Shown here in pieces: positions 7,570 to 64,000 of a DNA stretch of 64,000 bases. The stretch is from Candidatus Omnitrophota bacterium. Its GTDB lineage: Bacteria; Omnitrophota; Gorgyraeia; Zapsychrales; JAHFFX01. Within the stretch, counting starts at the first letter, position 1. Every line of letters starts with the position of its first letter. Below the pieces are notes generated by a model. That model saw only the letters and a list, made by a program, of their open reading frames with translations, ran no database searches and was not told where the DNA came from. The DNA is taken from positions 64,704 to 128,703 of the forward strand of contig JAHFFW010000003.1 in the NCBI GenBank assembly GCA_023247725.1, read 5' to 3'. A program made the position numbers and the translations under genes.

Positions 7570-7642
7570 GGGTCGGTAGCTCAGTTGGGAGAGCGTCTGC
7601 TCCGCAAGCAGAAGGCCGGGGGTTCGACTCCCCCCCGATCCA
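7570..7642 (+). tRNA. tRNA-Ala (anticodon CGC)
   Basis: Cloverleaf folded by hand: acceptor GGGTCGG/CCGATCC with the G3:U70 Ala identity pair, D-arm GCTC-AGTTGGGA-GAGC, anticodon stem TCTGC/GCAGA with loop TCCGCAA, T-arm GGGGG-TTCGACT-CCCCC, discriminator A. CCA is not encoded. Position 33 is C rather than the usual U. Confidence 0.8.
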
Positions 7643-7662
7643 TTAATTTCAAATTTCATCCT

Positions 7663-23712: not shown

Positions 23713-25083
23713 TTATTCCTTCCGCAAATGCGACGGCAAAATATTGAGCTGCTGACGATACTTGCTGATCGTTCGGCGGGCGATGTTGAAACCTTTTTTC
23801 TGAAAATGTTCCTGCAGTTCCTGATCAGAGAGAGGGGCGGTCTTTTGTTCAGCATCAATCAAATCCTTGATCTCTTCTTTGATACTGCGGCTGGAGACGG
23901 GACCTTGTGTTTGATGGGGAAGACCTTGAGAAAAGAAAAACCGCAAGGGCACCAAGCCTTGCGGTGTATCCACATACTTGTTTTGGATGGCCCGGCTGAC
24001 GGTTGATTCATTATGGTTGATGGCGACAGCGACATCCTTGAGCGTCATGGGATGAATCGATAAGTGTGCTCCGCCAAAAAAATCTTTTTGCTTGTCTAGA
24101 ATATACTCCGCGATCTCCTTGATGGTTTGCCCTCGCTGCTCAAGGCTACGGATGAAATTCGTGGCATTGCGCAACTTCTCCTTCACAAATTCCTTCTCCG
24201 CCTCCTTGAGGTTTTTATCCAGAAGCAGTCTTTGATAAAGCAGGTTGATCCGCAGATTAGGCAACCCTTCCTGATTGACCGTCACTTGAAAACCTTCAAT
24301 GGGATCCTGGTGGATGATGACGTCGGGTTTGATATAAATATTGGCATTGATCGGACGGTAATTACGCGCAGGTTTTGGCTCGAGACTGGCGATTTTGTTC
24401 GCAGCGTCTTTAACCAGCTCTAAGCTTGTTGCCAATTTGCGGGCGATCTCACTATATTTGCGCGAGCCCACCTCGGCCAGAAATGAATCGATCATGGTGG
24501 CGCCCAAATCGGCAGGGTCATCATACTTAGCCGACAATTGAATCTTTAAACATTCCTTCAAATCACGGGAAGCAATTCCGACCGGTTCAAAATTCTGAAT
24601 TCGCTGCAAAACATGTTCAACCAAGGCCAGATGATTTGGGCAAAGGCTTTGGGCAATCTCATCGCAGGAGATCCGTAAATACCCATCTTCGTCCAAGTTC
24701 CCGATAATTGTTTCTCCAATTTTTAACTGCAGAGGTTCTGAAAATTCAAAGCGCAGCTGTTCTAGCAATGAATCTTCCAAAGGAAGTTCCTTAAAAAGAG
24801 GTTTTTCCTCCCAGCGTTCATCTTCGCTAAAAGACTCCATCCGTTGCAATCGGAGGATTTCTCTTTGGCGTTGAATGTTGTTTTTCGTGATGTCAGCATG
24901 AGCTGCCACAGAAACCATCTGGGGTTCATCTTCATTGATTTCTAAAAGGGGATTATTTTGCAATTCTTGTTCGATGGCAAGGTCAAGATCGGCCAATGGC
25001 AATGCGAGAATTGAGATCGATTGTTGCATGGAAGGAGCGAGGATGGTTTTTTGTACTTGGGACAAAGCAAGCTTTGTTTTCAT
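23713..25083 (-). CDS. rpoN: RNA polymerase sigma-54 factor
   Basis: N-terminal Gln/Leu-rich region I (LAPSMQQSISILALP), core-binding region, C-terminal HTH and RpoN box ARRTISKYR. Start taken at MKTKLALSQ. Confidence 0.93.
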   Translation of the reverse strand: MKTKLALSQVQKTILAPSMQQSISILALPLADLDLAIEQELQNNPLLEINEDEPQMVSVAAHADITKNNIQRQREILRLQRMESFSEDERWEEKPLFKELPLEDSLLEQLRFEFSEPLQLKIGETIIGNLDEDGYLRISCDEIAQSLCPNHLALVEHVLQRIQNFEPVGIASRDLKECLKIQLSAKYDDPADLGATMIDSFLAEVGSRKYSEIARKLATSLELVKDAANKIASLEPKPARNYRPINANIYIKPDVIIHQDPIEGFQVTVNQEGLPNLRINLLYQRLLLDKNLKEAEKEFVKEKLRNATNFIRSLEQRGQTIKEIAEYILDKQKDFFGGAHLSIHPMTLKDVAVAINHNESTVSRAIQNKYVDTPQGLVPLRFFFSQGLPHQTQGPVSSRSIKEEIKDLIDAEQKTAPLSDQELQEHFQKKGFNIARRTISKYRQQLNILPSHLRKE

Positions 25084-25224
25084 AGCAAGAAGTATACCAT
25101 ATTGCATTTTTTAAAGTAAAAATTTTTATCGGCACGACGAAATAGACCTCCGTAGATAAAAAACGCGTGGGATGTCCATTGATGTTTTTATTGGACAATA
25201 CCTTAAGTCGCTGCTGTGAGTTAT

Positions 25225-25408
25225 TTTCTATGATTGTCCAGGCTTGTCCTAGACAATCATGTTTAGTGAATTGAACATTGCTGAGTTTGAATCCTTTGAC
25301 CATCATTATTTGTAGAAAGATTGTGTAATTATAAAATAATGCATAACATGACCTTATAGAACATTCGTTTTTATTTGTCCGGGCTTGTCCAAGATGGCAT
25401 GTTACTTG
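25225..25408. promoter_or_regulatory. Two ~32-bp direct repeats (TGATTGTCCAGGCTTGTCCTAGACAATCATGTT / TATTTGTCCGGGCTTGTCCAAGATGGCATGTT) plus extra TTGTCC/GGACAA half-sites in the AT-rich region between rpoN and the EPS operon
   Basis: Read directly. Copy 1 is at 25231-25263 and copy 2 at 25373-25404. Copy 1 is flanked by the inverted heptamers GATTGTC/GACAATC. TTGGACAA occurs at 25191. Confidence 0.45.
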
Positions 25409-25547
25409 CTGTATTATGGGGTACGAAGGCATTGACGACAATTAAAGAGATGGTCATCCCACATTTCAATCACCTAATAACTATCGCTACCCCGAAAGCA
25501 GTTTTACATTCTTTTAAAGATTGCCATTAGAGTTCACGGAAGGAAGG

Positions 25548-25775
25548 ATGCACATGATCGAGGAACGCTTAACTCAAGGAGGCTTGGAAGTGAAAAAAAG
25601 GATGACCATAACTGAGGTCGCGGACCTGATAGGCATCAGTCCGAAAACGCTGGCGCGATGGGAAAAGGTCGGCAAGATCAAAAAGCCCAAACGGGACTGG
25701 CGGGGCTGGCGGGTTTATGATGAAACTGACTTCTTACACATAAAAGAGTTTCATGAAACCGTTTTTGAAGTCTGA
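25548..25775 (+). CDS. Small MerR/excisionase-family helix-turn-helix DNA-binding protein
   Basis: MTITEVADLIGISPKTLARWEKVGKIKKP...RVYDETD; RBS GGAAGGAAGG upstream of ATG 25548; first gene of the EPS operon. Confidence 0.6.
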   Translation: MHMIEERLTQGGLEVKKRMTITEVADLIGISPKTLARWEKVGKIKKPKRDWRGWRVYDETDFLHIKEFHETVFEV

Positions 25776-25806
25776 GTCATATATATTAAAGAAAGGAAGA
25801 CCGACT

Positions 25807-26601
25807 ATGAAGCGAGGCGTTTCTATTTTTTGGTTGTTCATCATCATGGCCGGATTGGCGGGTTTAAACTCTCCCTGGGTCATGGCCCAGAATTTTGCTG
25901 ACCGACCACCGGTTCATGAAGAACCGCAAGCTGTGACGAAAGCTGATCCATCGCAAAGTGATCAAGAACTTTCCGCGGAGGAAATCCTCAAGAAAACCAA
26001 ATTTTTTGAGAATGGCAAGCAATACACCTTAGGGAGAGATGATGTCCTGGACATTTCCATCATGCGTCACCCGGAAGTATCCGGGCAATACATCATTAAT
26101 GCCGAAGGCAATATACAATATGAATTTGTTGGCGATATCAGAGTGAGCGGTTTGACAAAAGATGAGGTGCGCGATGCAATTGCCGAAAAATTGTCCAACT
26201 TCATTGTCTCTCCGGATGTGACGGTCAAGATTGTGGGTTATAACAGCAAGGTGGTGTATGTCATTGGAGAAGTTGGTCGTCCAGGAAAGATTTTTATGCG
26301 TGGCGACACGATCACCGTCCGAGAAGCCCTTCTGGAAGCGGGTCTTCCTTTATTGACGGCCTCCCCCAAAAAGGGCCGATTGATCACCCCCTCTATGACG
26401 GGTAAACCCGAACAGAAAAAGGTCAATGTCGAAGCCTTGCTCTATAAGGGCGATTTGCGTGAAAACCTGGTGATGAAGCCAGGAGATACGCTTTATATCC
26501 CGGCCACAGTTTTGGCGAAGGCCATGCGGGCGATTTACCCTGTCACTCAACCCGTCGGCGAGGCAGCCGGTACGACCCGGGCGGTTTATCCGGGATTTTA
26601 A
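25807..26601 (+). CDS. Periplasmic polysaccharide export protein (Wza/OPX family, PEP-CTERM-locus type)
   Basis: Signal peptide; Poly_export domain (LGRDDVLDISI...GNIQYEFVGDIRVSGLTKDEVRDAIAEKL) followed by an SLBB domain (VYVIGEVGRPG...GDTITVREALLEAGL). Confidence 0.85.
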   Translation: MKRGVSIFWLFIIMAGLAGLNSPWVMAQNFADRPPVHEEPQAVTKADPSQSDQELSAEEILKKTKFFENGKQYTLGRDDVLDISIMRHPEVSGQYIINAEGNIQYEFVGDIRVSGLTKDEVRDAIAEKLSNFIVSPDVTVKIVGYNSKVVYVIGEVGRPGKIFMRGDTITVREALLEAGLPLLTASPKKGRLITPSMTGKPEQKKVNVEALLYKGDLRENLVMKPGDTLYIPATVLAKAMRAIYPVTQPVGEAAGTTRAVYPGF

Positions 26602-26646
26602 ACTTCGATGACTTTTTTTACGATTACAACTTAGCGAGGATCTGAC

Positions 26647-27942
26647 ATGGACGAATTAAATCAGACAGCATTTTCACCTTTGAATTATTTAAAAATCTTT
26701 TTCCGCCGCAAAAGCCTTTTTATTGTGCCTTTGTACGCGGGTTTAATCCTGGGAATTTGCGTGGGGATGATTATGCCCAAGAAGTACCGGTCTTCGACGA
26801 TTATCCAGGTGGAAGAAGGTAAATCCGATAATCCTTTGTTTGATAACCTAGCGGTTTCAACCAGTGTCAATCAAAGGATGGGGGCCATCCAAGAGTCCAT
26901 GCTCGGATGGAATAGCCTGGTCAAGCTCGTCAAGAGACTCGGGTTGGATAAGGAGGTCAAGACGCCGGGAGACTTAGAAAATCTCATCATGAAGATCCGC
27001 CGCAATATCGATATTCGCCTGCGGGGAGGAAACATCATCGATCTGGCCTATGTGGGGGATGATCCCCAGATCACCCAATCCGTGGTCAAAACGATCACCG
27101 AAATTTTCATCGAGCGCAATATTGAAATTCAGAATTCTGAAACTTCCGACGCCATTGCCTTCATCGAGGCGCAGCTGAAAATTTATAAAGGGAAAATCAA
27201 ATCTTCCGAGATTGCGCTTCTCAAAGAACAGCTGGATGGCTTATTGCTCGATTCCACCGAACAGCATCCGCGGGTGCGCGAATTGAGGACTCAGATTGAA
27301 CAAAAAAAGAAGGAGTTAGAAAAAGAAAAATTGCAATACTCGGAGGATATGGTTCTGGAAGAGCGCACGACCAATCCCATTATCGAAGAGATCAAGCGTG
27401 CCCTCGACAGCATGGAATCAACGACGGTCTCAATCAATCAAGCCGCTCCGCGCAAAGAAAAAGAGGGCGATTTATACAAGGTCATGCTCATCGACAAGAT
27501 GGACAATGTCATGGCCAGAGACGTGGGAGTCAATACGGCCATTTACAATATGCTTTTGCAGCGTCTGGAAACGGCAAAAATCACCCAGCGATTGCAATCC
27601 TCGAAGGAAGGAACAAAATACACAATCCTCGATCCGCCCCGGGTGCCCTTGAGCCCAATTCAACCAAATCGATTATTGGTAGCGTTCATGGGAATGTTTT
27701 TGGGTGGAGTGGCAGGAATTGGGTTGGTCCTGTTAACCGAATTTCTGGATAAATCCTTTCTCGATGTTCAGGAGGCCAAAGAATATCTGGGCGTCCCCTT
27801 ATTGGGCGCGATCTCAAAAATCAATACGATTGAAAGCATTCAGCAAGAAAAAGAACGACAAGGATGGTTTGCCAGCCTTACGGTCATCACCGGATTGGTG
27901 TTGGTTCTCATTACCGTGGTTCTGTCCGGATTGATTCATTAA
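26647..27942 (+). CDS. Polysaccharide chain-length determinant protein (Wzz/PCP family; the kinase is separate)
   Basis: N-terminal TM, Wzz domain, long coiled-coil periplasmic region, C-terminal TM; no kinase domain. Confidence 0.82.
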   Translation: MDELNQTAFSPLNYLKIFFRRKSLFIVPLYAGLILGICVGMIMPKKYRSSTIIQVEEGKSDNPLFDNLAVSTSVNQRMGAIQESMLGWNSLVKLVKRLGLDKEVKTPGDLENLIMKIRRNIDIRLRGGNIIDLAYVGDDPQITQSVVKTITEIFIERNIEIQNSETSDAIAFIEAQLKIYKGKIKSSEIALLKEQLDGLLLDSTEQHPRVRELRTQIEQKKKELEKEKLQYSEDMVLEERTTNPIIEEIKRALDSMESTTVSINQAAPRKEKEGDLYKVMLIDKMDNVMARDVGVNTAIYNMLLQRLETAKITQRLQSSKEGTKYTILDPPRVPLSPIQPNRLLVAFMGMFLGGVAGIGLVLLTEFLDKSFLDVQEAKEYLGVPLLGAISKINTIESIQQEKERQGWFASLTVITGLVLVLITVVLSGLIH

Positions 27943-27975
27943 AAAGCCTTTCGCCCCAGATGAGGAGGAAGTTGC

Positions 27976-28866
27976 ATGTATCAACAATATTTCGGTTTTA
28001 AAGAATCTCCCTTTAATATCACGCCTAATTCCAAGTTCTTTTTTGCAAGCCTCAGACATACCGAGGCGCTCAATACCATGGTCTACGCAGTTTCGGAACG
28101 AAAAGGTTTTGTGGTCATTACCGGGGATATTGGCGCCGGCAAAACCACCGTTTGCCGGGCCCTCGTTAATCAGTTGGATTCCCGAACCCAAGTCGCGTTG
28201 ATCACCAACACCCTCATGAACGGCCGCGATTTGATTAGCACCATCCTCGAAGATTTGGAAGCGCAATACACCCCTGGGTCGAAGGCCAAATTGCTTTTCC
28301 AATTGAATAATTATCTGATTGAGCAATTGCGCGAAAATAATAATGTCGTCCTCATCATTGATGAAGCCCAGAACCTCACGCCTTCGGTTCTCGAAGAGGT
28401 GCGCCTTTTATCCAACCTCGAGACCGAAAGCGAGAAACTCATTCAGATCATTTTCCTTGGCCAGCCGGAATTAAAGAAAAAATTGGCAATGAATCGGCTC
28501 GAGCAATTGCGACAACGGGTCGCCGTCTATTATCATCTCTCGCCTTTAACCAAAGATGAAGCCCGGGAGTACATTCTTCATCGATTAAAAATTGCCAGCA
28601 AGAGCGACCGCCAGTATTTTACGGAGGAAGCCTTGGAGACGGTTTATAATTTTTCCAACGGAGTTCCGCGATTGATCAACCAAATCTGCGACAGCGCCCT
28701 CTTAAGCGCTTATGTCGCCGAAGCGGCCCAAGTCACTGACCAGACGATGCGGGAAGTCATTGCGGAATCTCCCATGATCCAAATCACAAGCGGCCAGCCG
28801 GTCTTGCCTAAAAAAGAGTCGGCCTTGGCTGAGGATCTGACAACGAAGATTTACTTCAAAGGGTGA
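27976..28866 (+). CDS. ExeA/GspA-like AAA ATPase (the ATPase family associated with PEP-CTERM loci)
   Basis: MYQQYFGFKESPFNITPNSKFFF...ITGDIGAGKTTVCRAL...LIIDEAQNLTPSVLEEVRLLSN. Confidence 0.85.
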   Translation: MYQQYFGFKESPFNITPNSKFFFASLRHTEALNTMVYAVSERKGFVVITGDIGAGKTTVCRALVNQLDSRTQVALITNTLMNGRDLISTILEDLEAQYTPGSKAKLLFQLNNYLIEQLRENNNVVLIIDEAQNLTPSVLEEVRLLSNLETESEKLIQIIFLGQPELKKKLAMNRLEQLRQRVAVYYHLSPLTKDEAREYILHRLKIASKSDRQYFTEEALETVYNFSNGVPRLINQICDSALLSAYVAEAAQVTDQTMREVIAESPMIQITSGQPVLPKKESALAEDLTTKIYFKG

Positions 28867-28929
28867 GATGGAACGTGCTCGTTTCTGCCTTAGGGTCAAT
28901 TGCGCTCGCACCAAAAAAGGAGAGACCAA

Positions 28930-29577
28930 ATGAGCAAAATACTCAAAGTGCAAGAAGAAATGAAGGGACACAATTTCAACTTCGTTTCTGCAGCGGTGGA
29001 GAAAATGGCGGGTGAAAAAAGCGGTAATTCCTTCGCCGCCAGCCTCGCCCATACCGGCTTTCGCCAGGCCGGTGGACCTTCACCAAAATTAGGCCTCTTG
29101 ATCAGCATCCTGTCAGGCAGTGCCGTGGTTGGTTTTTCCCTGGCCTTATTGCTTGTTAATATGAAAATGCTGGATCAGGTTAAAACCAATTCGCACTCAA
29201 GCCTTCAACTCGATCATGAGTTAAGCCAATTAAACCAGCGGCTGGCAAAGCTGGAGCAGTTCACGGGCGATTTTAAGGAAATGGCTGTCAAAGATCATGA
29301 GGATTTCCGAGGCCGATTAACGCAAATCAAAGGTTCAATGACCCATCAGGAAAATGATCTTTTGACCATTGACGAACACATAAAAGGGCTGCAGGGGAAC
29401 ATATCGCAAATAAGCGGCACCATTCAACAAAATGCAGATGAAATCGCCGAAATCAAACACAATAGTAATCTGCTCCAAGCCAAATTAAGCTCTCTGAATT
29501 CTATGGGCCAGAATTTGAAAGGGCAATATGATGAGCTCAGGGGCATGTTGAGATTAACGACGGGAAAGACGCAGTAA
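28930..29577 (+). CDS. Single-pass membrane protein with a long C-terminal coiled coil; hypothetical
   Basis: TM helix LGLLISILSGSAVVGFSLALLLV followed by about 130 aa of heptad-rich sequence. RBS AAAAAGGAGAGACC upstream of ATG 28930. Confidence 0.5.
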   Translation: MSKILKVQEEMKGHNFNFVSAAVEKMAGEKSGNSFAASLAHTGFRQAGGPSPKLGLLISILSGSAVVGFSLALLLVNMKMLDQVKTNSHSSLQLDHELSQLNQRLAKLEQFTGDFKEMAVKDHEDFRGRLTQIKGSMTHQENDLLTIDEHIKGLQGNISQISGTIQQNADEIAEIKHNSNLLQAKLSSLNSMGQNLKGQYDELRGMLRLTTGKTQ

Positions 29578-29619
29578 CCATCAAGCCTAAGTCATCAGCT
29601 AACGAGAGAAAGGATCACT

Positions 29620-30405
29620 ATGGGAAAGATCACCAGTGCCTTAAAAAAAGCCGCGGAAGAACGCTTGTACCGGATTGATAAGATTGCCAAGATTCGCGAA
29701 GAAAGCCGTTTGGTTGTTCGCAAAATGGGCAATTCCAGGGTGGATAGTCGGATTGTTTCCTATTTTGATCCCAAGGCCCTGATCACGGAACAGTATAAAG
29801 TTCTGCGGACCAATTTTCTTTCCTTAAATAAAGGTCGGCCGCCCAAAACCATGGTGATCACCAGTTCCCTTCATTCAGAAGGCAAGACCATCACCGCTCT
29901 AAACCTGGCTGTTTCTTTGGCGCACACGGTCCATAAGCCAAAGATTCTTATGATTGACGCGGACTTGCGCCGGGGGCGAATTTCTAAATATCTTGGAGTC
30001 GAACAGGAAAAAGGATTAACCGAAATCCTGGAGGGAAAAGGCCTTCTTGAAGAAGCCATGTTTCACATCGATCTAGAAAATCTGACATTCATGGCCTCTG
30101 GATCGGTACCACCGAACCCTTCGGAGTTATTGGCTTCTGATGCTATGCGCAATCTGATCCATGAAGTTCGGGGAAAGTTTGATTACGTTCTCATCGATAC
30201 CCCACCCATCATTTCCGTCACCGATGCTGGTATTGTGGGTGCGCTCGCCGAAGGTGTGCTCATGGTAATCCAGGCCGGGCGGACCCAGCGCGGCATTGTT
30301 GACCGTGCCACAGAACTTCTGCACCAGGCTCATGCCCGCTTGATCGGGCATGTGTTGACCAATATTGAGTATCATTTGCCGGAATATATTTATCGGTATT
30401 TATAA
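29620..30405 (+). CDS. Chain-length-determinant-associated protein tyrosine kinase (BY-kinase, EpsG/CpsD type)
   Basis: Walker A' and B motifs (ITSSLHSEGKTITALNLA, ILMIDADLRRG, VLIDTPP) and a C-terminal tyrosine cluster YHLPEYIYRYL. Confidence 0.85.
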   Translation: MGKITSALKKAAEERLYRIDKIAKIREESRLVVRKMGNSRVDSRIVSYFDPKALITEQYKVLRTNFLSLNKGRPPKTMVITSSLHSEGKTITALNLAVSLAHTVHKPKILMIDADLRRGRISKYLGVEQEKGLTEILEGKGLLEEAMFHIDLENLTFMASGSVPPNPSELLASDAMRNLIHEVRGKFDYVLIDTPPIISVTDAGIVGALAEGVLMVIQAGRTQRGIVDRATELLHQAHARLIGHVLTNIEYHLPEYIYRYL

Positions 30406-30475
30406 AATCACCAGGCTTATCGGTAACGGCCACGGTCACGAAGCCCGTTTCGTCTCTCGGTAAAGGTAACGAATG

Positions 30476-30880
30476 GAAGAAAAAAGACGAATAGCTAGTT
30501 TTGAAGACCTGGAGGTGTATTGAAACTCTTAGAGCGCGATGCTGATTGTCATGAGGGAGATCATTCCCAAACTTCCTATAAAGGAAAAATTCGATTTAGT
30601 CGATCAATTACGTCGTGCTTCTAAGGCACTCCCAAGATTGATCGCGGAAGGATTGCGAAGAGGCATCAAAAATCTGGATTCCAAAAATATCTCGATGACG
30701 CCATGGCAGAAAGTAATGAAATGGTTGTGAGTTTGAGACAAACGAAAGATCTTTATTCTCAACATGGGGATTGTCAGCTTTGCATTAAGCTCCTTGATGA
30801 TGACGATAAGTGTAGTCGACAGTTATATAAACTTGGCGAGGTCTGGAATAATTTCAAAAGTCGATGAACGTCACCGAATA
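30476..30880 (+). pseudogene. Decayed gene for a four-helix-bundle protein (the family once called 23S rRNA intervening-sequence protein)
   Basis: SFEDLEVY followed by a stop, then in other frames IIPKLPIKEKFDLVDQLRRASKALPRLIAEGLRRG and a C-terminal helix fragment. This matches the FEDLEVW...IPANIAEG signature but is broken by at least two frameshifts or stops. Confidence 0.5.
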
Positions 30881-31006
30881 CCGATACGGGCATCGTGCCC
30901 GTGACCGAAAAACGAAACATAGCGGCTATTGGTTCTGGTGACTTCAACAGTTCCCTGGGACCCCGGGTCAGCTTGCAGACTTGGGGCTGGGGACGAAAGG
31001 ACAACC

Positions 31007-50364: not shown

Positions 50365-51138
50365 ATGAGTTCGGGATTACCTCCTATATTAATGTACCAT
50401 GGCATTATCGATGTTGAGAAAAACTTCCCCGAAGACCGGGAACCCGGAGCTTCTCTTTATGATTTACCGCTAGCGGTCTTTCGTCAGCATTTGGAGTTTT
50501 TGAAGAAAAACAATTTCCAAGTCAACACATGTGATTCGGATAAAAAGAAAAATGGCGGCAAGCAGGTTGTCCTGACATTTGATGACGGAGAGATGAACAA
50601 CTTCCTTCACGTGTTTCCAATGTTGCAACAATACGACTTTCCGGCTTATTTTTTTATCACGGTCGATCGGATCGGGAAAAAAGGATATATGGATTGGCCC
50701 CATCTTAAAGTGATGATTCAAAATAATCTGATCATTGGTTCGCATGGGATGCGCCATGAGATTCTGACCAAGTTGAATGAAGCGGAGTTGGTCCAAGAGT
50801 TGCGGTTGTCTCGCAAAATTTTAGAAGATCGTCTTCAAAAAAATATTTTTAGCTTCTCGGTCCCGCGGGGATTTTTCAATCTGCGAATTTTAAAACTTGC
50901 GAAGGAGGCCGGTTATTCAGAAATTTTTGTTTCCGGTTGTCCGCAGAATTTACCGGATGAATGCTGGGGCCGAATCGCCGTCAAAAGCCGCTGGGGAACA
51001 GATCGGTTAGCCATGGCGTTGGAAGGGCGTATCCCTTTGAACGAAAAAATTTTTGAGGCGGTCAAAAATACAATCCAATCCTGCATAGGGGATGAAAACT
51101 ACGATCGGTGGCGGGACAAAATATTAATGAAGTCTTGA
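50365..51138 (+). CDS. Polysaccharide deacetylase (CE4 / NodB homology domain; the exosortase-locus-associated type)
   Basis: VVLTFDDGEMNNF (the TFDDG motif), GSHGMRHE, and further His/Asp metal-binding contexts. Confidence 0.85.
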   Translation: MSSGLPPILMYHGIIDVEKNFPEDREPGASLYDLPLAVFRQHLEFLKKNNFQVNTCDSDKKKNGGKQVVLTFDDGEMNNFLHVFPMLQQYDFPAYFFITVDRIGKKGYMDWPHLKVMIQNNLIIGSHGMRHEILTKLNEAELVQELRLSRKILEDRLQKNIFSFSVPRGFFNLRILKLAKEAGYSEIFVSGCPQNLPDECWGRIAVKSRWGTDRLAMALEGRIPLNEKIFEAVKNTIQSCIGDENYDRWRDKILMKS

Positions 51139-51304
51139 CCCTAATTTCAATCTTGTGGATAATAAAAACACCGGAGGATGTTGTCGGGAAAAAATTCGGG
51201 CACTCTTTCCCGACGAGAAATGACGGTTTGACAACAAAAGAGGGCCGTGTTATACTTCCAGCGTAATAAATCCCGTTCTTTTGTTCGTCAATGTTCTGAA
51301 GTGA

Positions 51305-53928: not shown

Positions 53929-53957
53929 TTGACAAGCTCTTCCAGCCTGCTAATAAT
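53929..53957 (+). promoter_or_regulatory. Sigma70-like promoter (TTGACA-N16-TAATAAT) in front of the second pseudopilin operon
   Basis: TTGACA at 53929-53934 and TAATAAT at 53951-53957; about 60 nt upstream of ATG 54018. Confidence 0.4.
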
Positions 53958-54017: not shown

Positions 54018-54404
54018 ATGAAGAGAATGAAAACCGCCAAGGGTCTCACGCTGGTTGAGTTGCTCATTGCCGTGTTTCTGCTTTCTGTCGGTATCGCCAG
54101 CACCCTCATGTTTTTTTCGAATGCCATGCTCTCGGCGGATTTTGCCGGGGACATCAGCGTCGCTTCGACCCATGCCGAACATGTTCTTGAAGAGATGAAG
54201 TCTCGTCGGAGCCTAGAAGAGATCCAGGGCACCAATTGGCAAGAATGGGCCTTGCAACAGGATTTCAATATGCTGCCGAATGAAAGGGTGGAGGTCAACT
54301 TCGGCAATATTGAAGGTGCCCTTATGGATGTTACAGCCCAAATCCATTGGATCAAACGGGCCCGCGATAATCAGGTTTCTTTTATGACGACCTTATCCCG
54401 ATGA
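54018..54404 (+). CDS. Prepilin-type protein (PilV/GspI-like minor pilin)
   Basis: MKRMKTAKGLTLVELLIAVFLLSVGIAS; possibly starts at ATG 54027. Confidence 0.75.
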   Translation: MKRMKTAKGLTLVELLIAVFLLSVGIASTLMFFSNAMLSADFAGDISVASTHAEHVLEEMKSRRSLEEIQGTNWQEWALQQDFNMLPNERVEVNFGNIEGALMDVTAQIHWIKRARDNQVSFMTTLSR

Positions 54405-54883
54405 AGATACAAAAGCGGAAGGCTTTCACCTTACTGGAAATTTTGGTGACGGTCGCCCTGTTCACCTTTTTGGTGGCAGCGGTCTATCAGGCTTTTTTGG
54501 TAGGAAATCGATCCTGGACTAGTTATAACTACAGGGTCTCCATGCAAAGAGAATTGCGCTGGACCCTTTATGCATTGGTCAAGGATCTGCGAGAAGCCAA
54601 GGAAATTTTGGTGACTCAAGATGATACGAAGAGCGTTTTGAGCTTTAATAAACCAGGATCTGGCATCATCATTTACACCTGGTTCAAAGCGGGTGATCGG
54701 GCACAGCATTTGCTCCGGCAAGAAGAATCCAAAGAACGAACGATTGCCCAGCATGTTTCAAATCTGGAATTTATTCAGCCTTCCACCAAAGAAATTTTCG
54801 TTGATATCACGGTCACAGAGAGACCATTATTCGCCGCGCCATTGAGCTTGAATTTGAAACAAAAAGTCAAGGTCCGAATATAA
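54401..54883 (+). CDS. Prepilin-type protein (PilW/GspJ-like minor pilin)
   Basis: MKIQKRKAFTLLEILVTVALFTFLVAAVYQAFL. Confidence 0.75.
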   Translation: MKIQKRKAFTLLEILVTVALFTFLVAAVYQAFLVGNRSWTSYNYRVSMQRELRWTLYALVKDLREAKEILVTQDDTKSVLSFNKPGSGIIIYTWFKAGDRAQHLLRQEESKERTIAQHVSNLEFIQPSTKEIFVDITVTERPLFAAPLSLNLKQKVKVRI

Positions 54884-56611: not shown

Positions 56612-56809
56612 TTTGGCCTTTCTAAATTTTGCGAAATTTCACAAATATTTGTTTTGAAAAAACTTCCGCCAGATATGATAATTCCCCTGTTCGTTAAATT
56701 ATTCCATTCTTGTTGGGGCCATTAACGCTGGCCAGGAACTCTCGATCATGATAGTGGATGATCCGCAAGCAGAGGGTTTTTAAAAGTAAAATTGAGGCCA
56801 GGATGGGCC

Positions 56810-57964
56810 ATGGCAAAATTTCTTTTTTGGTATTTTTTATTTTTAATCGGATATTGCTATTTTGGTTATCCGATCATACTGAGCCTCCTTGCTCGTCTAC
56901 GACCGAGACCGATTAAGAAGGCGCCTATGTTTCCTTTTGTTAGTATCATTATTTCCGTCTGCAATGAAGCGGAGGTGATTGAAAAAAAACTAAAGAATCT
57001 TCTGGCTTCGGATTACCCGGCGGAACAAATGGAAATACTGGTCGGTTCCGATGGGTGCGTGGATCAAACAGTCCAAATCATAAAGGAATTTTCTGATTAT
57101 AGGATAAGGCTCTTTGAATTCCCCTCCCGCCGGGGAAAATCGAGTGTTTTAAATGATCTTGTCCCGCAGGCTAAAGGTGAGATCCTGATCTTCACCGATG
57201 CTAGGCAAATCTTTGCTAAGAATGGCATAGAGGCTTTAGTCCAAAATTTTGCCGATCCGAAGGTCGGCTGCGCCAGTGGAGAATTGATTCTGGGCCAAAG
57301 TCAGGCATCGACTGGCAAGGGCATTCACTTGTATTGGAATTATGAAAAATTTTTACGCCGCGCCGAAAGCCAAATCCATTCGATGATCGGAGCGACCGGC
57401 GCCATTTATGCAATCCGCAAAGAACTGTACACCCCACTGCCGCCCGATGTCGTGCTTGATGACGTGTATATCCCGTTGAGGGTGGTGGAACGCGGTTTCC
57501 GGTGCATTTTTGACAACGAGGCTAGGGCCTACGATCAGGTTGCAGAAAACCCGTCGCAGGAGCATGCCCGCAAAGCGCGGACCCTGTATGGGAATTACCA
57601 GATCTTTACCCTCTTTTCCGATATGTTCAATCCGGCCAAAAGTTATTTGGCTTTTCAGCTTTTCTCTCATAAATTTTTGCGCGTTATGGTGCCTTTTTTA
57701 CTGGTGGGATTATTCGCGGTCAATATCCCTCTTATGTTTGAACCATTCTACCGGGTGATATTTTTTTCGCAGGTCATATTTTATGGGCTGGCTTTTTTAG
57801 GGTACCAGTTAAGAAATTCAAAATGGATTATCCCTGAGCCTATTTCCCGACTGACATACATTCCATATGTTTTTTGCCTGTTGAATTATTCGGCATTGGT
57901 AGGATTTGTTCGATTTGTGACTTCCGGGCAAAGCGTGGCTTGGGAAAAGGCCGGGGATGTCTAA
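56810..57964 (+). CDS. Integral-membrane GT2 family glycosyltransferase
   Basis: Two N-terminal TM segments, a GT2 catalytic domain (FVSIIISVCNEAEV...LVGSDGCVDQT, FTDARQ) and four C-terminal TM segments. No QxxRW motif was found. Confidence 0.75.
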   Translation: MAKFLFWYFLFLIGYCYFGYPIILSLLARLRPRPIKKAPMFPFVSIIISVCNEAEVIEKKLKNLLASDYPAEQMEILVGSDGCVDQTVQIIKEFSDYRIRLFEFPSRRGKSSVLNDLVPQAKGEILIFTDARQIFAKNGIEALVQNFADPKVGCASGELILGQSQASTGKGIHLYWNYEKFLRRAESQIHSMIGATGAIYAIRKELYTPLPPDVVLDDVYIPLRVVERGFRCIFDNEARAYDQVAENPSQEHARKARTLYGNYQIFTLFSDMFNPAKSYLAFQLFSHKFLRVMVPFLLVGLFAVNIPLMFEPFYRVIFFSQVIFYGLAFLGYQLRNSKWIIPEPISRLTYIPYVFCLLNYSALVGFVRFVTSGQSVAWEKAGDV

Positions 57965-58805
57965 GGCTCTTAAAGATTTTATGCAAAAAATCATCAAAAT
58001 TTATTCTCGCGAGTTGATTGTGGCCGTGGTGTTTTTGCTGGCCTATGCGCCCATATTCGTTTGGATGTGGAACCGCTGGTTTGCCCCGGATTCCTATTAC
58101 AGCCACGGGATTCTTGTCCCTTTTGTGACCGGCTATCTCATTTGGCTAAATAGAGACACCTTAAAAAATGTGGAAAAGCGACAAGGTGAAATGGTGGGCA
58201 TGGTTATGCTCGCCTTCGGGATCTTTGCCCTGATCTTAAGTTCGTTTTTACGGAGCTATCCGGCGGGGGCACTCACGATGATTGTGGTGTTGGCGGGTCT
58301 TATCATTACGTTTTTTGGCACTCGCGTCATGAAGACGATCGCCTTCCCGATTGCCTTTTTATTTTTCATGATTCCTTTGCCTGAGTATATGATTACGAAG
58401 ATCAGTTTTAATATGAAAATTTTTGCCGCTCAAATCGCTACCGATATCCTTAATAATCATTTGCGTATTCCGGCCTTGCGCGAAGGAAGTCTGATTAAAA
58501 TGAGAAGCGCTTATGTGATGGTCGATGATGTGTGCAGTGGTTTGCGTTCGCTGATTTCGTTATCAGCGCTGGGAAGTGTTTTTGCTTACTGGATGAAACG
58601 GCCTATGTACAAGCGGATCCTACTTTTTCTTCTCACCATTCCCATTGCGATCATCACGAATGTCGTTCGTGTCATCCTTTTGGCCACGATCAGTGAAGTT
58701 TGGGGACCGCAATTTGCAACCGGCTTGACTCACGATATTTCGGGTTTTTTGATGTTCGCCTTGGCTTTTGTTTTATTATACGCAACCGCGAAAGTGATTG
58801 AATGA
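57957..58805 (+). CDS. Exosortase (XrtA/EpsH family)
   Basis: Eight TM segments with conserved exosortase motifs YSHG, FFMIPLPE, the catalytic Cys in DDVCSGLRSL, and NVVRVILL. Confidence 0.92.
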   Translation: MSKALKDFMQKIIKIYSRELIVAVVFLLAYAPIFVWMWNRWFAPDSYYSHGILVPFVTGYLIWLNRDTLKNVEKRQGEMVGMVMLAFGIFALILSSFLRSYPAGALTMIVVLAGLIITFFGTRVMKTIAFPIAFLFFMIPLPEYMITKISFNMKIFAAQIATDILNNHLRIPALREGSLIKMRSAYVMVDDVCSGLRSLISLSALGSVFAYWMKRPMYKRILLFLLTIPIAIITNVVRVILLATISEVWGPQFATGLTHDISGFLMFALAFVLLYATAKVIE

Positions 58806-59443
58806 GATTAAATCAAAACCAGACATTTTGGGGGACAATTTTTTTTCTTGGTTTGGCCGGAATTATTTCTTGGATATTTTATTACCGAGAATTTACTCAA
58901 AAAGATACCATCGATATCCACAATTTTCCGAAGACAATTGGTGAATGGAAAGGGGAGGACCTGCCAATTTCAGAATACGAATACGGTATTTTAGAAACGC
59001 GCAACGTCCTCGCCCGAAAATATATTCATCCCGATCAACGGATTGTCTATCTTTTGCTCGTCTATTCGCAACATAATCGGAAAGTGACGCATCCTCCAGA
59101 AATCTGCTACACCGGAGGAGGGATTTCCATTCTCGAAAATGTCACTACTCCTATTGAACCCCTACACTTCACTGAAAAGATTATGGCAAACCGGCTTTTA
59201 TTGGAATACAAAGGGGCAAGGCAATATGCGTTTTACTGGTTCAAAGTTGGATCTTCCTACACGCCCAGTTACTGGAAACAGCAAATCCTCATTGTTTCTA
59301 ATATTCTAGAGGGGCGCTCCCGCGGTTGTGCCCTGATTCGCGTCTCCAGCGATATCCTTGACAAAAATACCGACATCGCTACAAGAAATGTAACAGAGTT
59401 TACCAATCTTCTTTTACCCTTGCTCTCTACCTACCTGCCTTAA
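58802..59443 (+). CDS. Exosortase-associated EpsI family protein
   Basis: N-terminal TM, then the conserved HPPEICYTGGG motif typical of EpsI; translationally coupled to the exosortase gene. Confidence 0.85.
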   Translation: MRLNQNQTFWGTIFFLGLAGIISWIFYYREFTQKDTIDIHNFPKTIGEWKGEDLPISEYEYGILETRNVLARKYIHPDQRIVYLLLVYSQHNRKVTHPPEICYTGGGISILENVTTPIEPLHFTEKIMANRLLLEYKGARQYAFYWFKVGSSYTPSYWKQQILIVSNILEGRSRGCALIRVSSDILDKNTDIATRNVTEFTNLLLPLLSTYLP

Positions 59444-59673
59444 CCATTTCCAATTCAACATCCTCGTCTCCTAATTTCCAAAAAAGTTACCTGCCTCTCT
59501 TTGTATATAAAATAAACATTGTCTAAAATTATAAACCACACAATGGGGTAGTTTGTCTATAGATGTCTGAGTGTGTCATAGGTTGGGAAGATTTTTCCAT
59601 TTCATTGTTCCTATAACTATAAGTGCCACAAGTAATTAAATAAATATTGAATTCTAAAAATGCAATCCAACCT

Positions 59674-59689
59674 TGGCATAGAAGTTGCT
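59674..59689 (+). promoter_or_regulatory. Sigma-54 (-24/-12) promoter: TGGCAT-A-GAAG-TTGCT
   Basis: GG at 59675-76 and GC at 59687-88 with the canonical 10-nt separation. Matches TGGCAC-G-N4-TTGCW at 11 of 12 defined positions. It sits in an AT-rich 300-bp intergenic region about 70 nt upstream of ATG 59757. Confidence 0.65.
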
Positions 59690-59756
59690 TATATAAGGAT
59701 GCGTTGTTGTATAGGAAAAGAATTTCAACTTTTTGAACCCTACAACTCATTACACT

Positions 59757-60605
59757 ATGCAACCATCCAAACTGAACTCCCCAAGGTATCTGGTAATAAG
59801 TCTTCTTTTACTGATGGTCTTTGGTTCTTTACCGAGACAGGCAGAGGCCGTGACTTTTGTAAAGCCACAGGACGCTCGCCTCGTAATTGCAGAGGGGAAG
59901 ATTAATGAAATTCCAGAAAATTTGCCTTCCGAGTCTAAATCTCATGCCCCTGAACCTGCGACTCTAGCTTTGTTTGGCAGCGGAATCTTTGGAATGATCG
60001 TTAGTTTTTTGAAGAGGGCTTATTTGGTTGCCAAAAGAATTTTTGATATAATCGTGTCTTTATTAGGCATTTTAATTCTATCGCCTTTATTTCTTCTGGC
60101 TGCAATTCTTATCAAAAGCTCATCCAAGGGGCCGATTCTCTATAAACAAATTCGGGTTGGCCAAAAGGGGAAACTCTTTGAAATTTACAAATTTCGCTCT
60201 ATGAAAATGGATGCGGAAAAGGAGTGCGGGCCAGTCTGGGCCAAGAAAGATGATGACCGCTTGATTACGGTAGGAAAATTTTTAAGAATGAGTCGAATTG
60301 ATGAGTTGCCCCAATTTTTCAATATCCTCAAGGGCGATATGAGCTTGATCGGTCCTAGGCCCGAACGGCCGGTTTTTGTGGAAAAGTTTAAAGAAATGAT
60401 CCCAGATTACGAAAAGCGATTATTGGTTAAGCCAGGGATCACCGGTTTAGCCCAGGTTTGGCATAAGTACGATGAAACCATTAAGGATGTACGTAAAAAG
60501 ATCAAATACGATGTTCTTTACATTAAGAAACTGAATTTTGGGACTGATGTGAGAATTTTTTTGAGAACCTTTCTGGTCGTTTTAACAGGGCAGGGGGCCC
60601 AATAG
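59757..60605 (+). CDS. Polyprenyl-phosphate sugar phosphotransferase (bacterial sugar transferase, small WbaP/PssY-like type) whose open frame begins with a signal peptide plus an internal PEP-CTERM-like motif
   Basis: Catalytic domain RIFDIIVSLLGILILSPLFLLAAILIK...FEIYKFRSM...SLIGPRPERP. N-terminally in the same frame: signal peptide MQPSKLNSPRYLVISLLLLMVFGSLPRQAEA, a 35-aa spacer, then PEPATLALFGSGIFGMIVSFLKR. Confidence 0.8.
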   Translation: MQPSKLNSPRYLVISLLLLMVFGSLPRQAEAVTFVKPQDARLVIAEGKINEIPENLPSESKSHAPEPATLALFGSGIFGMIVSFLKRAYLVAKRIFDIIVSLLGILILSPLFLLAAILIKSSSKGPILYKQIRVGQKGKLFEIYKFRSMKMDAEKECGPVWAKKDDDRLITVGKFLRMSRIDELPQFFNILKGDMSLIGPRPERPVFVEKFKEMIPDYEKRLLVKPGITGLAQVWHKYDETIKDVRKKIKYDVLYIKKLNFGTDVRIFLRTFLVVLTGQGAQ

Positions 60606-60686: not shown

Positions 60687-61553
60687 ATGAAAAAGTCATT
60701 CATTACAATTGGGGCATTGCTCATCTGCACAGCTCCAGTTTGGGCTCAGCCTTTTTCCGCGCCCATGGGCAGCGATACCTACGGAATCAGTCAAGGAGGA
60801 GCCAATAATCTTTTGATCCCGACGCCTAACGACGATAACGATAATCCCGGGCCTTATGGCGGAACCCCTTATACTCTAGGTGGAGGACCCAATCCGGCTG
60901 ACATCAATGACGCTATCAATCTATTATTGGGCACAAACTATGTCCATAATTCCGACGTGGATTTTCTTCGCCATACTGGACCGGATAATGCCTGGCAGGA
61001 TTTAAGTTCCCAAAATCAACAGGGACCTTTCGTTTTTATTTCGTTAACCGCAGATTTTACTAACAGCCTTTATACATACGACGTCGGTGATCCGACCACT
61101 CTTTATCAAGTCATTCCCGGCCAGACAGGATACGGTTTTGTGGGTGACGGAAGCGCAGGAAAGCCGTTTGTTGGCGGGGTCAATCCTTTATCGTCAAACA
61201 ATTTTGGCTGGGCTCTGGTGAGTGATTATAATGGCACGGAATATATTTGGGATTCTAACCCGGCGTTCAATCCGGATGATTTAGATCACATGCTAACCTA
61301 TCATTTGGCTAACCTCCAGGGTCGTACCGTTTATGTCGATGTCGATGGAAATATTCAGCAATATAAATTTAACGATCCTTACCTTTTGGCTTGGGAAGAC
61401 CTTCCATTACGAAATGGTAAACTTGGGGACGAAGATTACGACGATTCCATATTTCTGGTTGATCGAGTTCGGCCTATACCAGAACCCATCAGTTTAGTCT
61501 TATTGGCCAGTGGCTTCATGGGAATGATCGGATTGAAAAGAAAAATAGGATAA
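60687..61553 (+). CDS. PEP-CTERM sorting-domain protein (exosortase substrate)
   Basis: Signal peptide MKKSFITIGALLICTAPVWAQ; C-terminal PIPEPISLVLLASGFMGMIGLKRKIG. Confidence 0.9.
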   Translation: MKKSFITIGALLICTAPVWAQPFSAPMGSDTYGISQGGANNLLIPTPNDDNDNPGPYGGTPYTLGGGPNPADINDAINLLLGTNYVHNSDVDFLRHTGPDNAWQDLSSQNQQGPFVFISLTADFTNSLYTYDVGDPTTLYQVIPGQTGYGFVGDGSAGKPFVGGVNPLSSNNFGWALVSDYNGTEYIWDSNPAFNPDDLDHMLTYHLANLQGRTVYVDVDGNIQQYKFNDPYLLAWEDLPLRNGKLGDEDYDDSIFLVDRVRPIPEPISLVLLASGFMGMIGLKRKIG

Positions 61554-61597: not shown

Positions 61598-61927
61598 ATG
61601 ATTAGTAAGCTCATCCGCAATGCCAATGTAGCTATCCTTAGCGTGCTTCTACCTTACATCTATGGTTGCTCTGGGGGGGGAGGTGGGGGTGGCAATTCAC
61701 TTTCCGAACTTTTGGGACCAGGAGCAGGAACTGGCGCGGGAGCAACGACTGCAGGAGCCGGCAGCGGGATCGATGCTGGTTTTCTTGCTTCGAGTTTATC
61801 TACCTCGAGCGAAGGCTTAGGAAACCATATTGCTTCAATCCATAATCCTGAGCCAACAACCATGGCCTTATTAGGTTCTGGCATTATGGCCATGGCCTTT
61901 TTAATGAATAAAAGCAAAAAATCATAA
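61598..61927 (+). CDS. Small Gly/Ala/Ser-rich protein with both a lipoprotein signal peptide and a PEP-CTERM domain
   Basis: Lipobox LLPYIYGC followed by Gly7. Low-complexity middle. C-terminal NPEPTTMALLGSGIMAMAFLMNKSKKS. Confidence 0.85.
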   Translation: MISKLIRNANVAILSVLLPYIYGCSGGGGGGGNSLSELLGPGAGTGAGATTAGAGSGIDAGFLASSLSTSSEGLGNHIASIHNPEPTTMALLGSGIMAMAFLMNKSKKS

Positions 61928-61959
61928 TTTAGTATTCTAAATTGAAAAAATTATAAAAT

Positions 61960-61994
61960 AAGGCAGGTTTAAAACACAACCTGCCTTATTTTTT
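61960..61994 (+). terminator. Rho-independent terminator
   Basis: 10-bp perfect stem AAGGCAGGTT/AACCTGCCTT, loop TAAAACAC, then ATTTTTTG. Confidence 0.85.
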
Positions 61995-62199: not shown

Positions 62200-62227
62200 T
62201 TGACATTGGCGCAAGCTGTGCTAGAAT
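62200..62227 (+). promoter_or_regulatory. Sigma70-like promoter TTGACA-N16-TAGAAT
   Basis: TTGACA at 62200-05 and TAGAAT at 62222-27; 50 nt upstream of ATG 62277. Confidence 0.45.
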
Positions 62228-63149: not shown

Positions 63150-64000
63150 AGAAATCAGTTTTGGTCATGTTGGGAATCTTGGTTGGGGTTTTTTTATTGT
63201 TTTCTCTTCTAGATCGTAACGGCGAATATGGTGCCGAACAATTGATGTGGTTAACAACTCACCGTTTGCAAGAATTTTCGCATGACCCCAAGTCCGTTCC
63301 CGATCAAGCGTTCGATGCTTTAGAAAAGAATTTCGAGGCCATTATCAAACGCGATCCTCAGTCTGAGCTAGCCTTGCAAGCCTATTTGTCCATTGGCCGG
63401 ATCTATTTGGTGAAAAGGTCATATGGAATTGCTCGACAAAAAATCGAAGAAGGTTTAAACCGGTATCCGCAACGCCCTGACTTTTGCGCCCTAGCATTAT
63501 CGTTTATTGGTCGCACGTATGAACTCGAAGAGGATTTGCCTCAGGCCTTAAGGATTTATAAGCGCCTTGTGAATGAATATCCCCAGACCCCCGTTGGACT
63601 AGAAATGCCTCTGTATATAGGACAGATTTATGAAAGGGAGGGGGCCCAAGCAAAGGCCCAGACTACTTATTCGCAAGCCATTGATCACTATCGCCAACTG
63701 GCCGATGAACATCCAGATTCTGATTTGGAAATAAGAAGTCTACGGATGTTGGCCAATACTTATATCGGTCTGCAGAAATGGCAAGAGGCCGTCGATACCT
63801 TGGGTGAAGTTCTCATTAAATCGGGACCCAATCAGTACCTGGACTCATCGCAGGTCAATTTAATATTGAGGTCAATCAACACCATTTCAATCGTGGAACT
63901 AAAAAATTATACAGTTCCTAAAAAAATTTACAAAGAATATATTCGTCGTCATCCTCAAGACGGTTTAAGTCGAGTAATAAAGGAGCTCATCAAAGGGTTG
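63146..64000 (+). CDS. TPR-repeat protein with an N-terminal signal/anchor; the 3' end lies outside the window
   Basis: MKKSVLVMLGILVGVFLLFSLL followed by repeated TPR-like units (ALQAYLSIGRIY..., ALSFIGRTYE..., ...). The frame is still open at 64000. Confidence 0.65.
   Translation, partial: MKKSVLVMLGILVGVFLLFSLLDRNGEYGAEQLMWLTTHRLQEFSHDPKSVPDQAFDALEKNFEAIIKRDPQSELALQAYLSIGRIYLVKRSYGIARQKIEEGLNRYPQRPDFCALALSFIGRTYELEEDLPQALRIYKRLVNEYPQTPVGLEMPLYIGQIYEREGAQAKAQTTYSQAIDHYRQLADEHPDSDLEIRSLRMLANTYIGLQKWQEAVDTLGEVLIKSGPNQYLDSSQVNLILRSINTISIVELKNYTVPKKIYKEYIRRHPQDGLSRVIKELIKGL

Follow-up and report, generated by a model that had tools for sequence, protein, structure and literature searches.

A 64,000-nucleotide stretch of DNA from a Candidatus Omnitrophota bacterium (contig JAHFFW010000003.1 of assembly GCA_023247725.1; hereafter the window) carries at 59674-59689, on the + strand, a sigma-54 type -24/-12 element that is very likely a genuine and functional promoter, lying in front of a gene for a sugar transferase and two genes for PEP-CTERM proteins. 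As judged from sequence comparison, this promoter would be used by RNA polymerase carrying the sigma-54 factor RpoN, activated by an NtrC-family regulator on tandem TGTC repeats, and joined in one regulon with a second promoter of like design ahead of polysaccharide-export genes, an explanation to which, taken as a whole, we give a probability of roughly 80%. It builds on features that are all observed: the motifs, which are conserved and keep a fixed spacing, the genes present, a terminator, rpoN, and an adjacent gene for an enhancer-binding protein (EBP).

The canonical sigma-54 consensus is TGGCAY-N5-TTGCW (also TGGCAC-N5-TTGCW), with GG and GC ten bases apart. The element at 59674-59689, TGGCAT-AGAAG-TTGCT (TGGCATAGAAGTTGCT), which was defined by pattern, weight matrix and an alignment of nine promoters, has this canonical GG/GC spacing. 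It lies within a 313-bp gap between the stop of epsI (59443) and the ATG of the transferase gene (59757), at a distance of 67 nt from that ATG. The GC content of this gap is 32.3%, compared with 47.8% for the window. An earlier sequence-only reading, which had pointed to a sigma-54 promoter with correct spacing at this position in an AT-rich region of about 300 bp, was thus right on both counts, and the element is among the two best sigma-54 matches in the window. From the usual -12 spacing, the transcription start is predicted near 59699-59701.

The exact pattern TGGCAY-N5-TTGCW occurs twice in the 64 kb (both strands), against 0.21 occurrences expected, and at least two occurrences were found in 3 of 100 dinucleotide shuffles. 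These two exact sites, at 25395 and 59674, also have the top two weight-matrix scores in the window (17.1 and 16.1, respectively); none of the 100 shuffles gave two or more matches at that score, and the background of matches scoring at least 16 was 0.30 per 64 kb in 1.73 Mb of unrelated loci. Each of the two sites lies between genes and is directed at its downstream gene. Whether set against the window, the shuffles or the 1.73-Mb background, the match is rarer than chance, and the two exact sites are not likely to have arisen by chance. When one mismatch was permitted, the pattern was not enriched in the window (9 observed vs 4.8 expected), so that only the two exact sites stand out. Two further sigma-54-like matches, GGGCACAGCATTTGCT at 54699-54714 (+; score 14.9; with the gene at 54898 following some 200 bp downstream) and TGGTATGCCCTTTGCT at 13455-13470 (-; score 15.8), lie in coding regions and are probably due to chance.

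Conservation in relatives provides the second line of evidence. With the downstream transferase as the query, 160 genomic and metagenomic loci were collected (labelled here with L-numbers), nine of which encode the same short transferase form with an N-terminal extension at 54-68% identity. The upstream sequence of L082 was too short, and this locus was left out of the conservation count. A strong -24/-12 motif was found upstream of the orthologue in seven of the eight assessable loci (L001, L081, L002, L083, L085, L087, and L003), with scores of 16.3-20.4, while L084 has a weaker TGGAAT-N5-TTGCT at the equivalent position. In the nine-promoter alignment, the columns T-G-G-x-A and T-G-C-T are invariant and the N5 spacer varies freely; because the invariant columns are the sigma-54 determinants, this pattern is the signature of sigma-54 recognition. 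As for the transferase promoter in the roughly 150 loci with other sugar transferases, no + strand match scoring at least 16 was found. Full synteny was seen in L002 and L085, where genes for a GT2 protein, exosortase and EpsI are followed by the promoter, the transferase gene, PEP-CTERM genes, and genes for a membrane protein, a TPR protein and an EBP.

These data make it scarcely credible that the motif is a chance occurrence in AT-rich DNA and that the genes owe their transcription to a sigma-70-type promoter or to read-through. The lack of enrichment of the one-mismatch pattern agrees with such an origin, but the motif is kept in seven of eight orthologous loci whose proteins have diverged to 54-68% identity, with GG and GC invariant and the spacer free, and no + strand sigma-70-like promoter was found in the gap between epsI and 59757. 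Likewise, no Rfam family was detected at 59400-59800 at a permissive threshold. In an unrelated metagenomic locus (L050), a strong sigma-54 motif, TGGCACGAAAGTTGCT (2679-2694, +; score 19.8), is located just past the sugar transferase gene and may precede another PEP-CTERM gene.

It is also conceivable, though highly unlikely, that the sigma-54 holoenzyme binds at 59674 and is not activated there, the closed complex acting as a roadblock or brake on read-through from exosortase and epsI. The lack of a terminator between epsI and the transferase gene fits this explanation, as does a sigma-54-type element at the start of rpoN (described below), which cannot be a promoter and is conserved in four genomes, so that regulatory sigma-54 binding may be used in this lineage. 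However, a conserved multi-site element at enhancer distance together with an adjoining EBP gene has the look of an activated promoter, and in L003 both the promoter and the repeats are kept although the upstream gene is on the opposite strand.

This multi-site element is a candidate enhancer, or upstream activator sequence (UAS), recognised by comparison at 59554-59577 (+). It consists of three TGTC direct repeats with a 10-bp period (TGTCTATAGA TGTCTGAGTG TGTC), which begin 100-120 bp upstream of the -24 element. The arrangement TGTC-N6-TGTC starts 100-126 bp upstream of TGGCA in eight of the nine transferase-gene promoters, in reverse orientation in L081, with L001 as the exception. In place of the TGTC repeats, L001 has an inverted repeat, ATCATAATGTT-N11-AACATTATGAT (9810-9845), at a similar distance. 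Within the window, TGTC-N6-TGTC occurs four times (both strands), always in the two sigma-54 upstream regions, and its background is 0.12 per 10 kb in the 1.73 Mb. The conserved repeats thus fall within the distance (about 80-200 bp) expected of a UAS, and the protein binding there is a candidate only.

The alignment showed two more conserved features in this gap. An extra upstream half-site, TGTCTAAAAT (59520-59529, +; consensus TGTCTAAATT), lies about 30 bp upstream of the repeats and has equivalents in L083 (TGTCTAAAT), L087 and L003 (TGTCCAATT), L085 (TGTCTAATT), and L084 (cGTCTAAAT). A central block, TAACyC..TTTA..TCAAnnAGTTA (59612-59640, +), which lies between the enhancer and the promoter and is conserved in part, may be a DNA-bending site. 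This block matches the IHF consensus in L084 alone (TATCAAGAGGTTA); in the window, no match to that consensus with up to one mismatch was found between the enhancer and the promoter. The sequence-only reading had looked to inverted repeats as the EBP sites, but 59444-59700 contains only weak AT-rich palindromes, and direct TGTC repeats were found instead.

The second exact site, TGGCAT-GTTAC-TTGCT (TGGCATGTTACTTGCT) at 25395-25410 (+), has the best score in the window and is located in the gap from which rpoN and the exopolysaccharide (EPS) genes diverge. Its upstream region contains a distal enhancer, TGTC-N6-TGTC-N3-GACA, inside a 13-nt inverted repeat (25230-25260, +), with the first TGTC at 25235, 160 bp upstream of the -24 element; of the two sigma-54 upstream regions, only this one has a good inverted repeat of 13 nt. 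The first gene after this promoter encodes a 61-aa helix-turn-helix (HTH) protein consisting of a MerR N-terminal domain only (25590-25775, +). It is followed by a polysaccharide-export module (25753-30405, +), which encodes a Poly_export (Wza-like) protein, a chain-length determinant, an ATPase like those of PEP-CTERM systems, a coiled-coil protein, and a tyrosine autokinase.

The HTH gene and the export genes have the same order in four other genomes (L161, L163, L164, and L166), and rpoN is the divergent neighbour of the HTH gene in three of these. In all four, a sigma-54 motif stands 81-114 nt before the HTH start, and the distal TGTC element is located 141-160 bp upstream of -24 in all five HTH promoters (window included). 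Because this second promoter is conserved together with its repeats ahead of the export genes, the export module belongs in the same predicted regulon. The sequence-only reading had confined sigma-54 control to the PEP-CTERM substrate genes and the priming transferase rather than the whole EPS operon; with an equally strong promoter and TGTC repeats ahead of the export genes, this restriction has to be given up.

A second TGTC-N6-TGTC repeat abuts the -24 element of the second promoter (25376-25390, +). This proximal repeat was found in two of the five genomes, namely the window and L161 (3868-3881), and is absent from L163, L164, and L166. It may be an operator, as its position suits repression or autoregulation rather than activation. 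The HTH protein itself has 630 homologues; identities are 64-92% among the best 120 of the 630, and the closest named organisms among those are Omnitrophota. No significant homologue of it was found in the 160 transferase loci.

From these features comes the question of whether the 61-aa HTH protein, and not an EBP, occupies the TGTC repeats of a true sigma-54 promoter, as a co-regulator, architectural protein or autoregulator, with the activator site elsewhere. We regard this as unlikely, though it has several points in its favour. The conservation of the protein is very high, and in every locus examined its gene comes first behind the sigma-54 promoter, ahead of the export genes. Its best NCBIfam match is HTH_BldC, and the BldC structures 6amk and 6ama were matched at E values of about 1e-3; BldC, which has a similar domain-only architecture, binds to direct repeats in head-to-tail fashion and strongly distorts the DNA (PMC5859096). 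Furthermore, a TGTC repeat abutting -24, which is an operator position and not an activator position, occurs only at the HTH gene's own promoter (window and L161). On the contrary, the HTH protein scores 27.2 bits against the BldC model NF033787, far under the cut-off of 77, and the BldC repeat unit is 9 bp long and AT-rich (AATTNNNNC), not TGTC at 10 bp. In addition, two to four sites at a fixed distance of about 115 bp upstream are enhancer-like, and PilR-type EBPs reportedly make use of GTCT elements (PMC6058289).

Binding of the repeats by an NtrC-family EBP, which we prefer, involves two proteins that should be encoded in the genome: sigma-54 and the EBP. The rpoN gene is located on the - strand (23713-25083, in an open reading frame (ORF) extending to 25107; likely true start ATG 25083-25081), 34.6 kb upstream of the 59674 promoter, and its product has all three sigma-54 domains (Sigma54_AID, Sigma54_CBD, and Sigma54_DBD). 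On rpoN's own strand, a sigma-54-type element, TGGTATACTTCTTGCT (25084-25099, -), abuts its start codon. This element is kept as TGGTATACTTTTTGCw in L161, L164, and L166, and in the four genomes including the window it takes the form TGGTATACTT(C/T)TTGC(T/A) and ends 0-4 nt before the rpoN start codon. A transcript from here would begin inside the gene, so the element is more suggestive of an autoregulatory sigma-54 operator than of a promoter.

As for the EBP, the window shows no GAFTGA or Walker-A signature in any of the six frames; this search relied on signatures, and the ORFs at 1-23,700 as well as several short ones (e.g., 50365-51138 and 54018-54883) stood outside the domain-library search. 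The last gene of the window encodes the 5' part of a 294-aa TPR protein (63167-64000, +) and continues beyond its end on the contig (ENA ERZ27297570, 132,899 bp). There, it is followed by genes for a 436-aa GAF-HisKA-HATPase_c histidine kinase, a 471-aa regulator (P0156), and a PocR/GAF protein. P0156 has a REC-Sigma54_activat-HTH_8 architecture, contains KGAFTGA, and is encoded about 1.3-2.8 kb past the window end. The sequence-only reading had placed rpoN about 35 kb upstream, had seen no EBP in the window and had expected the regulator to be encoded elsewhere, all of which agrees with these data; its further suggestion of a prsK/prsR pair holds insofar as a kinase gene and an EBP gene adjoin each other on the contig, but not as to the identity of the regulator as PrsR.

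P0156 scores 419.4 against TIGR02915 (PrsR), its second-best NCBIfam model, with a cut-off of 502.6, and 451.3 against AtoC, with a cut-off of 714. Since both scores are below the cut-offs, P0156 belongs to no curated equivalog. The corresponding regulators of L002 and L085 score 394.8 and 339.0 against TIGR02915 and, as with P0156, score higher against AtoC. Syntenic EBPs are encoded in L002, L084, and L085 (in the latter two about 5.5-6 kb downstream of the promoter), while L001, which likewise lacks the TGTC repeats, has no EBP gene within 10 kb. This co-occurrence of regulator and repeats is suggestive, in a small sample.

We therefore have to weigh whether the system is the canonical PrsK/PrsR/PrsT system of Proteobacteria. 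The regulatory logic and the neighbourhood match, with genes for a TPR protein, a histidine kinase and a REC-sigma54-HTH regulator beside exosortase and PEP-CTERM genes, and with TIGR02915 as the second-best model for P0156. However, the regulators fall short of the PrsR cut-off as given above, and the 277 in-window residues of the TPR protein score 30 bits against TIGR02917 (PrsT; 899 positions), whose cut-off is 312. PrsK, a multi-pass protein, is probably much larger than the 436-aa kinase found here. Haft et al. (2006; PMC1569441) described the proteobacterial bipartite element as a sigma-54 site preceded, across a spacer of about 63 nt, by a 17-nt motif with TTTACA at its end, and found it upstream of 99 of 167 PEP-CTERM genes, with a phylogenetic profile matching PrsK, PrsR, and PrsT. 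A sigma-54 motif ahead of PEP-CTERM genes is thus shared with the window, but neither TTTACA nor TGTAAA was found in 59444-59690 and 25108-25410, and the spacing from enhancer to promoter is about 95 nt, not about 63 nt. In that study, only Proteobacteria had the element, and motifs of other groups were still to be found (PMC1569441). We consider it quite unlikely that the system here is the canonical one, and the idea of a PrsR-type regulator, also put forward from the sequence alone, is not sustained for PrsR in the curated sense.

In the mechanism that we favour, RNA polymerase with RpoN (encoded at 23.7-25.1 kb) would bind the 59674 promoter as a closed complex, to be opened by an NtrC-family response regulator, for which P0156 (REC-AAA+-HTH_8) is the most likely candidate. 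The tandem TGTC repeats at 59520-59577, which lie about 100-155 bp upstream of -24, would be where the regulator assembles, and looping of the AT-rich spacer would bring it to the polymerase. The transcript would run from about 59700 to the terminator at 61955-61994 and encode the priming transferase, with its internal PEP-CTERM motif, and the two PEP-CTERM proteins. The similar enhancer-plus-promoter design at 25230-25410 would drive the small HTH gene and the polysaccharide-export genes, whereby one signal could switch on export, priming and exosortase substrates together. We infer three of these steps: transcription starting at the 59674 promoter, a protein binding the TGTC repeats, and a signal being sensed.

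Several observations weigh against this mechanism. The sigma-54 weight matrix behind the scores is our own approximation of published compilations, and the TGTC pattern was defined after inspection of these regions, so that independent evidence for it comes only from other genomes, where it recurs at a fixed distance, and from its absence elsewhere. In L001, only 15 nt separate the end of the -12 element from the start codon, so that the mRNA would be nearly leaderless. Since no terminator was found after epsI, read-through from upstream could also express the transferase unit. EBPs with a Fis-type HTH usually bind inverted, not direct, repeats. Finally, the link between regulator and repeats comes from synteny in four loci and one negative case.

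The unit that the 59674 promoter would control begins with a PglC-type polyprenyl-phosphate sugar transferase (59757-60605, +), whose start was placed at ATG 59757, where it yields a proper signal peptide and agrees with the start of the L002 orthologue. The protein scores 297.4 bits against TIGR03025 (cut-off 295.55) and 226 bits against Pfam Bac_transf. Besides the N-terminal signal peptide, it has an internal PEP-CTERM motif (residues 64-83; PF07589 score 21.5, cut-off 20.7) just in front of its catalytic domain; L001, L003, and L085 have kept the PEP motif, and L002 has SEA instead. This motif may tether the transferase to the exosortase, or the transferase may be cleaved by the exosortase. 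The second gene (60687-61553, +), preceded by AAGGAGAAAAAG, encodes a 288-aa PEP-CTERM protein with DUF4114 and the C-terminus PIPEP...KRK; its PF07589 score of 20.4 is just under the cut-off, with the motif visible in the sequence. The third gene (61598-61927, +) encodes a small PEP-CTERM protein of 109 aa (PF07589 score 22.3), which is rich in glycine and has a lipoprotein-like N-terminus; homologues of it come after the transferase gene in L001 and L002. The genes are separated by 81 and 44 bp, stretches that contain good Shine-Dalgarno sequences, and the three-gene unit is closed by a strong intrinsic terminator (61955-61994, +; 15-bp stem, 8-nt loop, T-run). These features bear out the view, already taken from the sequence alone, that the transferase and PEP-CTERM genes form one unit. 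Directly upstream of the promoter region (57957-59443, +) are the genes for the exosortase (57957-58805; TIGR02602 score 165.5, cut-off 105.55) and EpsI (58802-59443; TIGR02914 score 85.8, cut-off 42.8); the exosortase scores 175.1 against an XrtA-specific cut-off of 208.

Other regulatory signals are also present in the 38-kb locus. Sigma-70-like sites with 10-11 of 12 consensus positions were found on the + strand at 56654-56682, 53929-53957, and 62200-62227, preceding the GT2-exosortase-epsI genes, the pseudopilin genes, and the block for the membrane protein, TPR protein, kinase and regulator, respectively. This suggests that the three blocks are transcribed independently of sigma-54. Seen by their targets, such sites stand ahead of 51299, 54018, and 56792, and the near-consensus one at 62200-62227 stands ahead of the gene after the terminator. 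A c-di-GMP-I riboswitch (RF01051; 51299-51390, +; 72 bits, gathering score 35) is preceded by a near-consensus sigma-70-like promoter at 51228-51256 and followed by the gene for an 814-aa cysteine-rich repeat protein and the pseudopilin genes; as a predicted element, it is a second regulatory input into the matrix locus. With sigma-70-like hexamers and a riboswitch before its sub-blocks, the locus looks modular, not uniformly sigma-54 dependent. Generic promoter and terminator scans over 25-59.8 kb gave counts at chance level and were used only to point out a few intergenic sites. A 524-bp gap was noted at 30405-30929. Away from this locus, a tRNA gene (RF00005; 7570-7642, +; 66 bits) overlaps the start of the ORF at 7585-8406, whose listed start is probably wrong.

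What do these findings mean for the control of PEP-CTERM genes? Such control by sigma-54 was predicted in 2006 for Proteobacteria only and has been tested in a few floc-forming Betaproteobacteria. Matching logic is now seen in a lineage that is uncultured and probably belongs to Omnitrophota; its enhancer is different, and its regulator falls outside curated PrsR. In a full-text search of the literature that combined Omnitrophota with PEP-CTERM, exosortase or sigma-54, none of the matches listed mentioned Omnitrophota. The TGTC repeats provide a defined cis-element at a fixed distance from -24, P0156 is a concrete candidate for the regulator, and the predicted regulon joins polysaccharide export, chain initiation and exosortase substrates. 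The enhancer-plus-promoter pair could thus serve to predict the matrix-production regulon of uncultured Omnitrophota from sequence alone. More tentatively, and at less than even odds, the lineage may have its own sigma-54 enhancer code of TGTC repeats with a 10-bp period, read by a non-PrsR regulator or a BldC-like mini-HTH, which would co-activate export, the priming glycosyltransferase with its PEP motif, and the PEP-CTERM substrates from two promoters, with sigma-54 limiting itself via the operator at the rpoN start. To specialists on sigma-54 or exosortases, the main finding is not conceptually surprising.

Among known systems, PilS/PilR is similar in that an NtrC-family response regulator acts at a sigma-54 promoter, and it differs in its target genes (pilin). 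The DNA sites of PilR are reportedly tandem (N4-6)C/GTGTC repeats. One paper describes them as having GTCT elements nearby together with a NifA-like TGT-N11-AGA (PMC6058289). That these sites resemble the TGTC repeats offers a lead but does not amount to a test. BldC (Schumacher et al. 2018, PMC5859096), a small winged-HTH protein that binds variable numbers of direct repeats, is like the HTH protein here in size (about 61-70 aa) and in having no dimerisation or effector domain. Unlike BldC, however, the protein here shows weak similarity to the family (27 bits vs 77) and would face another repeat unit and sequence, and its binding to the TGTC repeats is hypothetical.

The closest parallels are found in exosortase systems. 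EPS loci of the XrtA/EpsH-EpsI type likewise contain an exosortase, EpsI, export, chain-length, ATPase and tyrosine-kinase genes like those of PEP-CTERM systems, and PEP-CTERM substrates. The locus here differs from them in its exosortase score (175 vs 208), in export, chain-length and ATPase proteins that are below the XrtA-system cut-offs (the last two narrowly), and in a priming transferase of the short form with an internal PEP-CTERM motif. In Aquincola tertiaricarbonis, the -24/-12 start of pepA has been mapped and depends on RpoN1, while the EPS genes were reported as apparently not RpoN1-dependent (Xia et al. 2023, PMC9850573). Both that system and Prs share with the window a sigma-54 -24/-12 element in a long non-coding region before PEP-CTERM genes, with an upstream activator site; the window differs from Aquincola in that its export genes carry a sigma-54 promoter too. 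The likeness to Prs extends to the genes encoded beside the exosortase and EPS genes (TPR protein, histidine kinase, and REC-sigma54-HTH regulator) and to the distance between motif and start codon, which is 67 nt here and 71 on average in the published set. The differences from Prs lie in the Omnitrophota-related host, as the published motif was reported from Proteobacteria only; in the activator site, which is made up of TGTC repeats of 10-bp period and lies about 95 nt from the promoter, instead of being a 17-nt TTTACA motif at about 63 nt; in a regulator and a TPR protein below the curated PrsR and PrsT cut-offs; and in a polycistronic unit that starts with a priming sugar transferase. Overall, we see here a variation on an established regulatory scheme rather than a system of a new kind.

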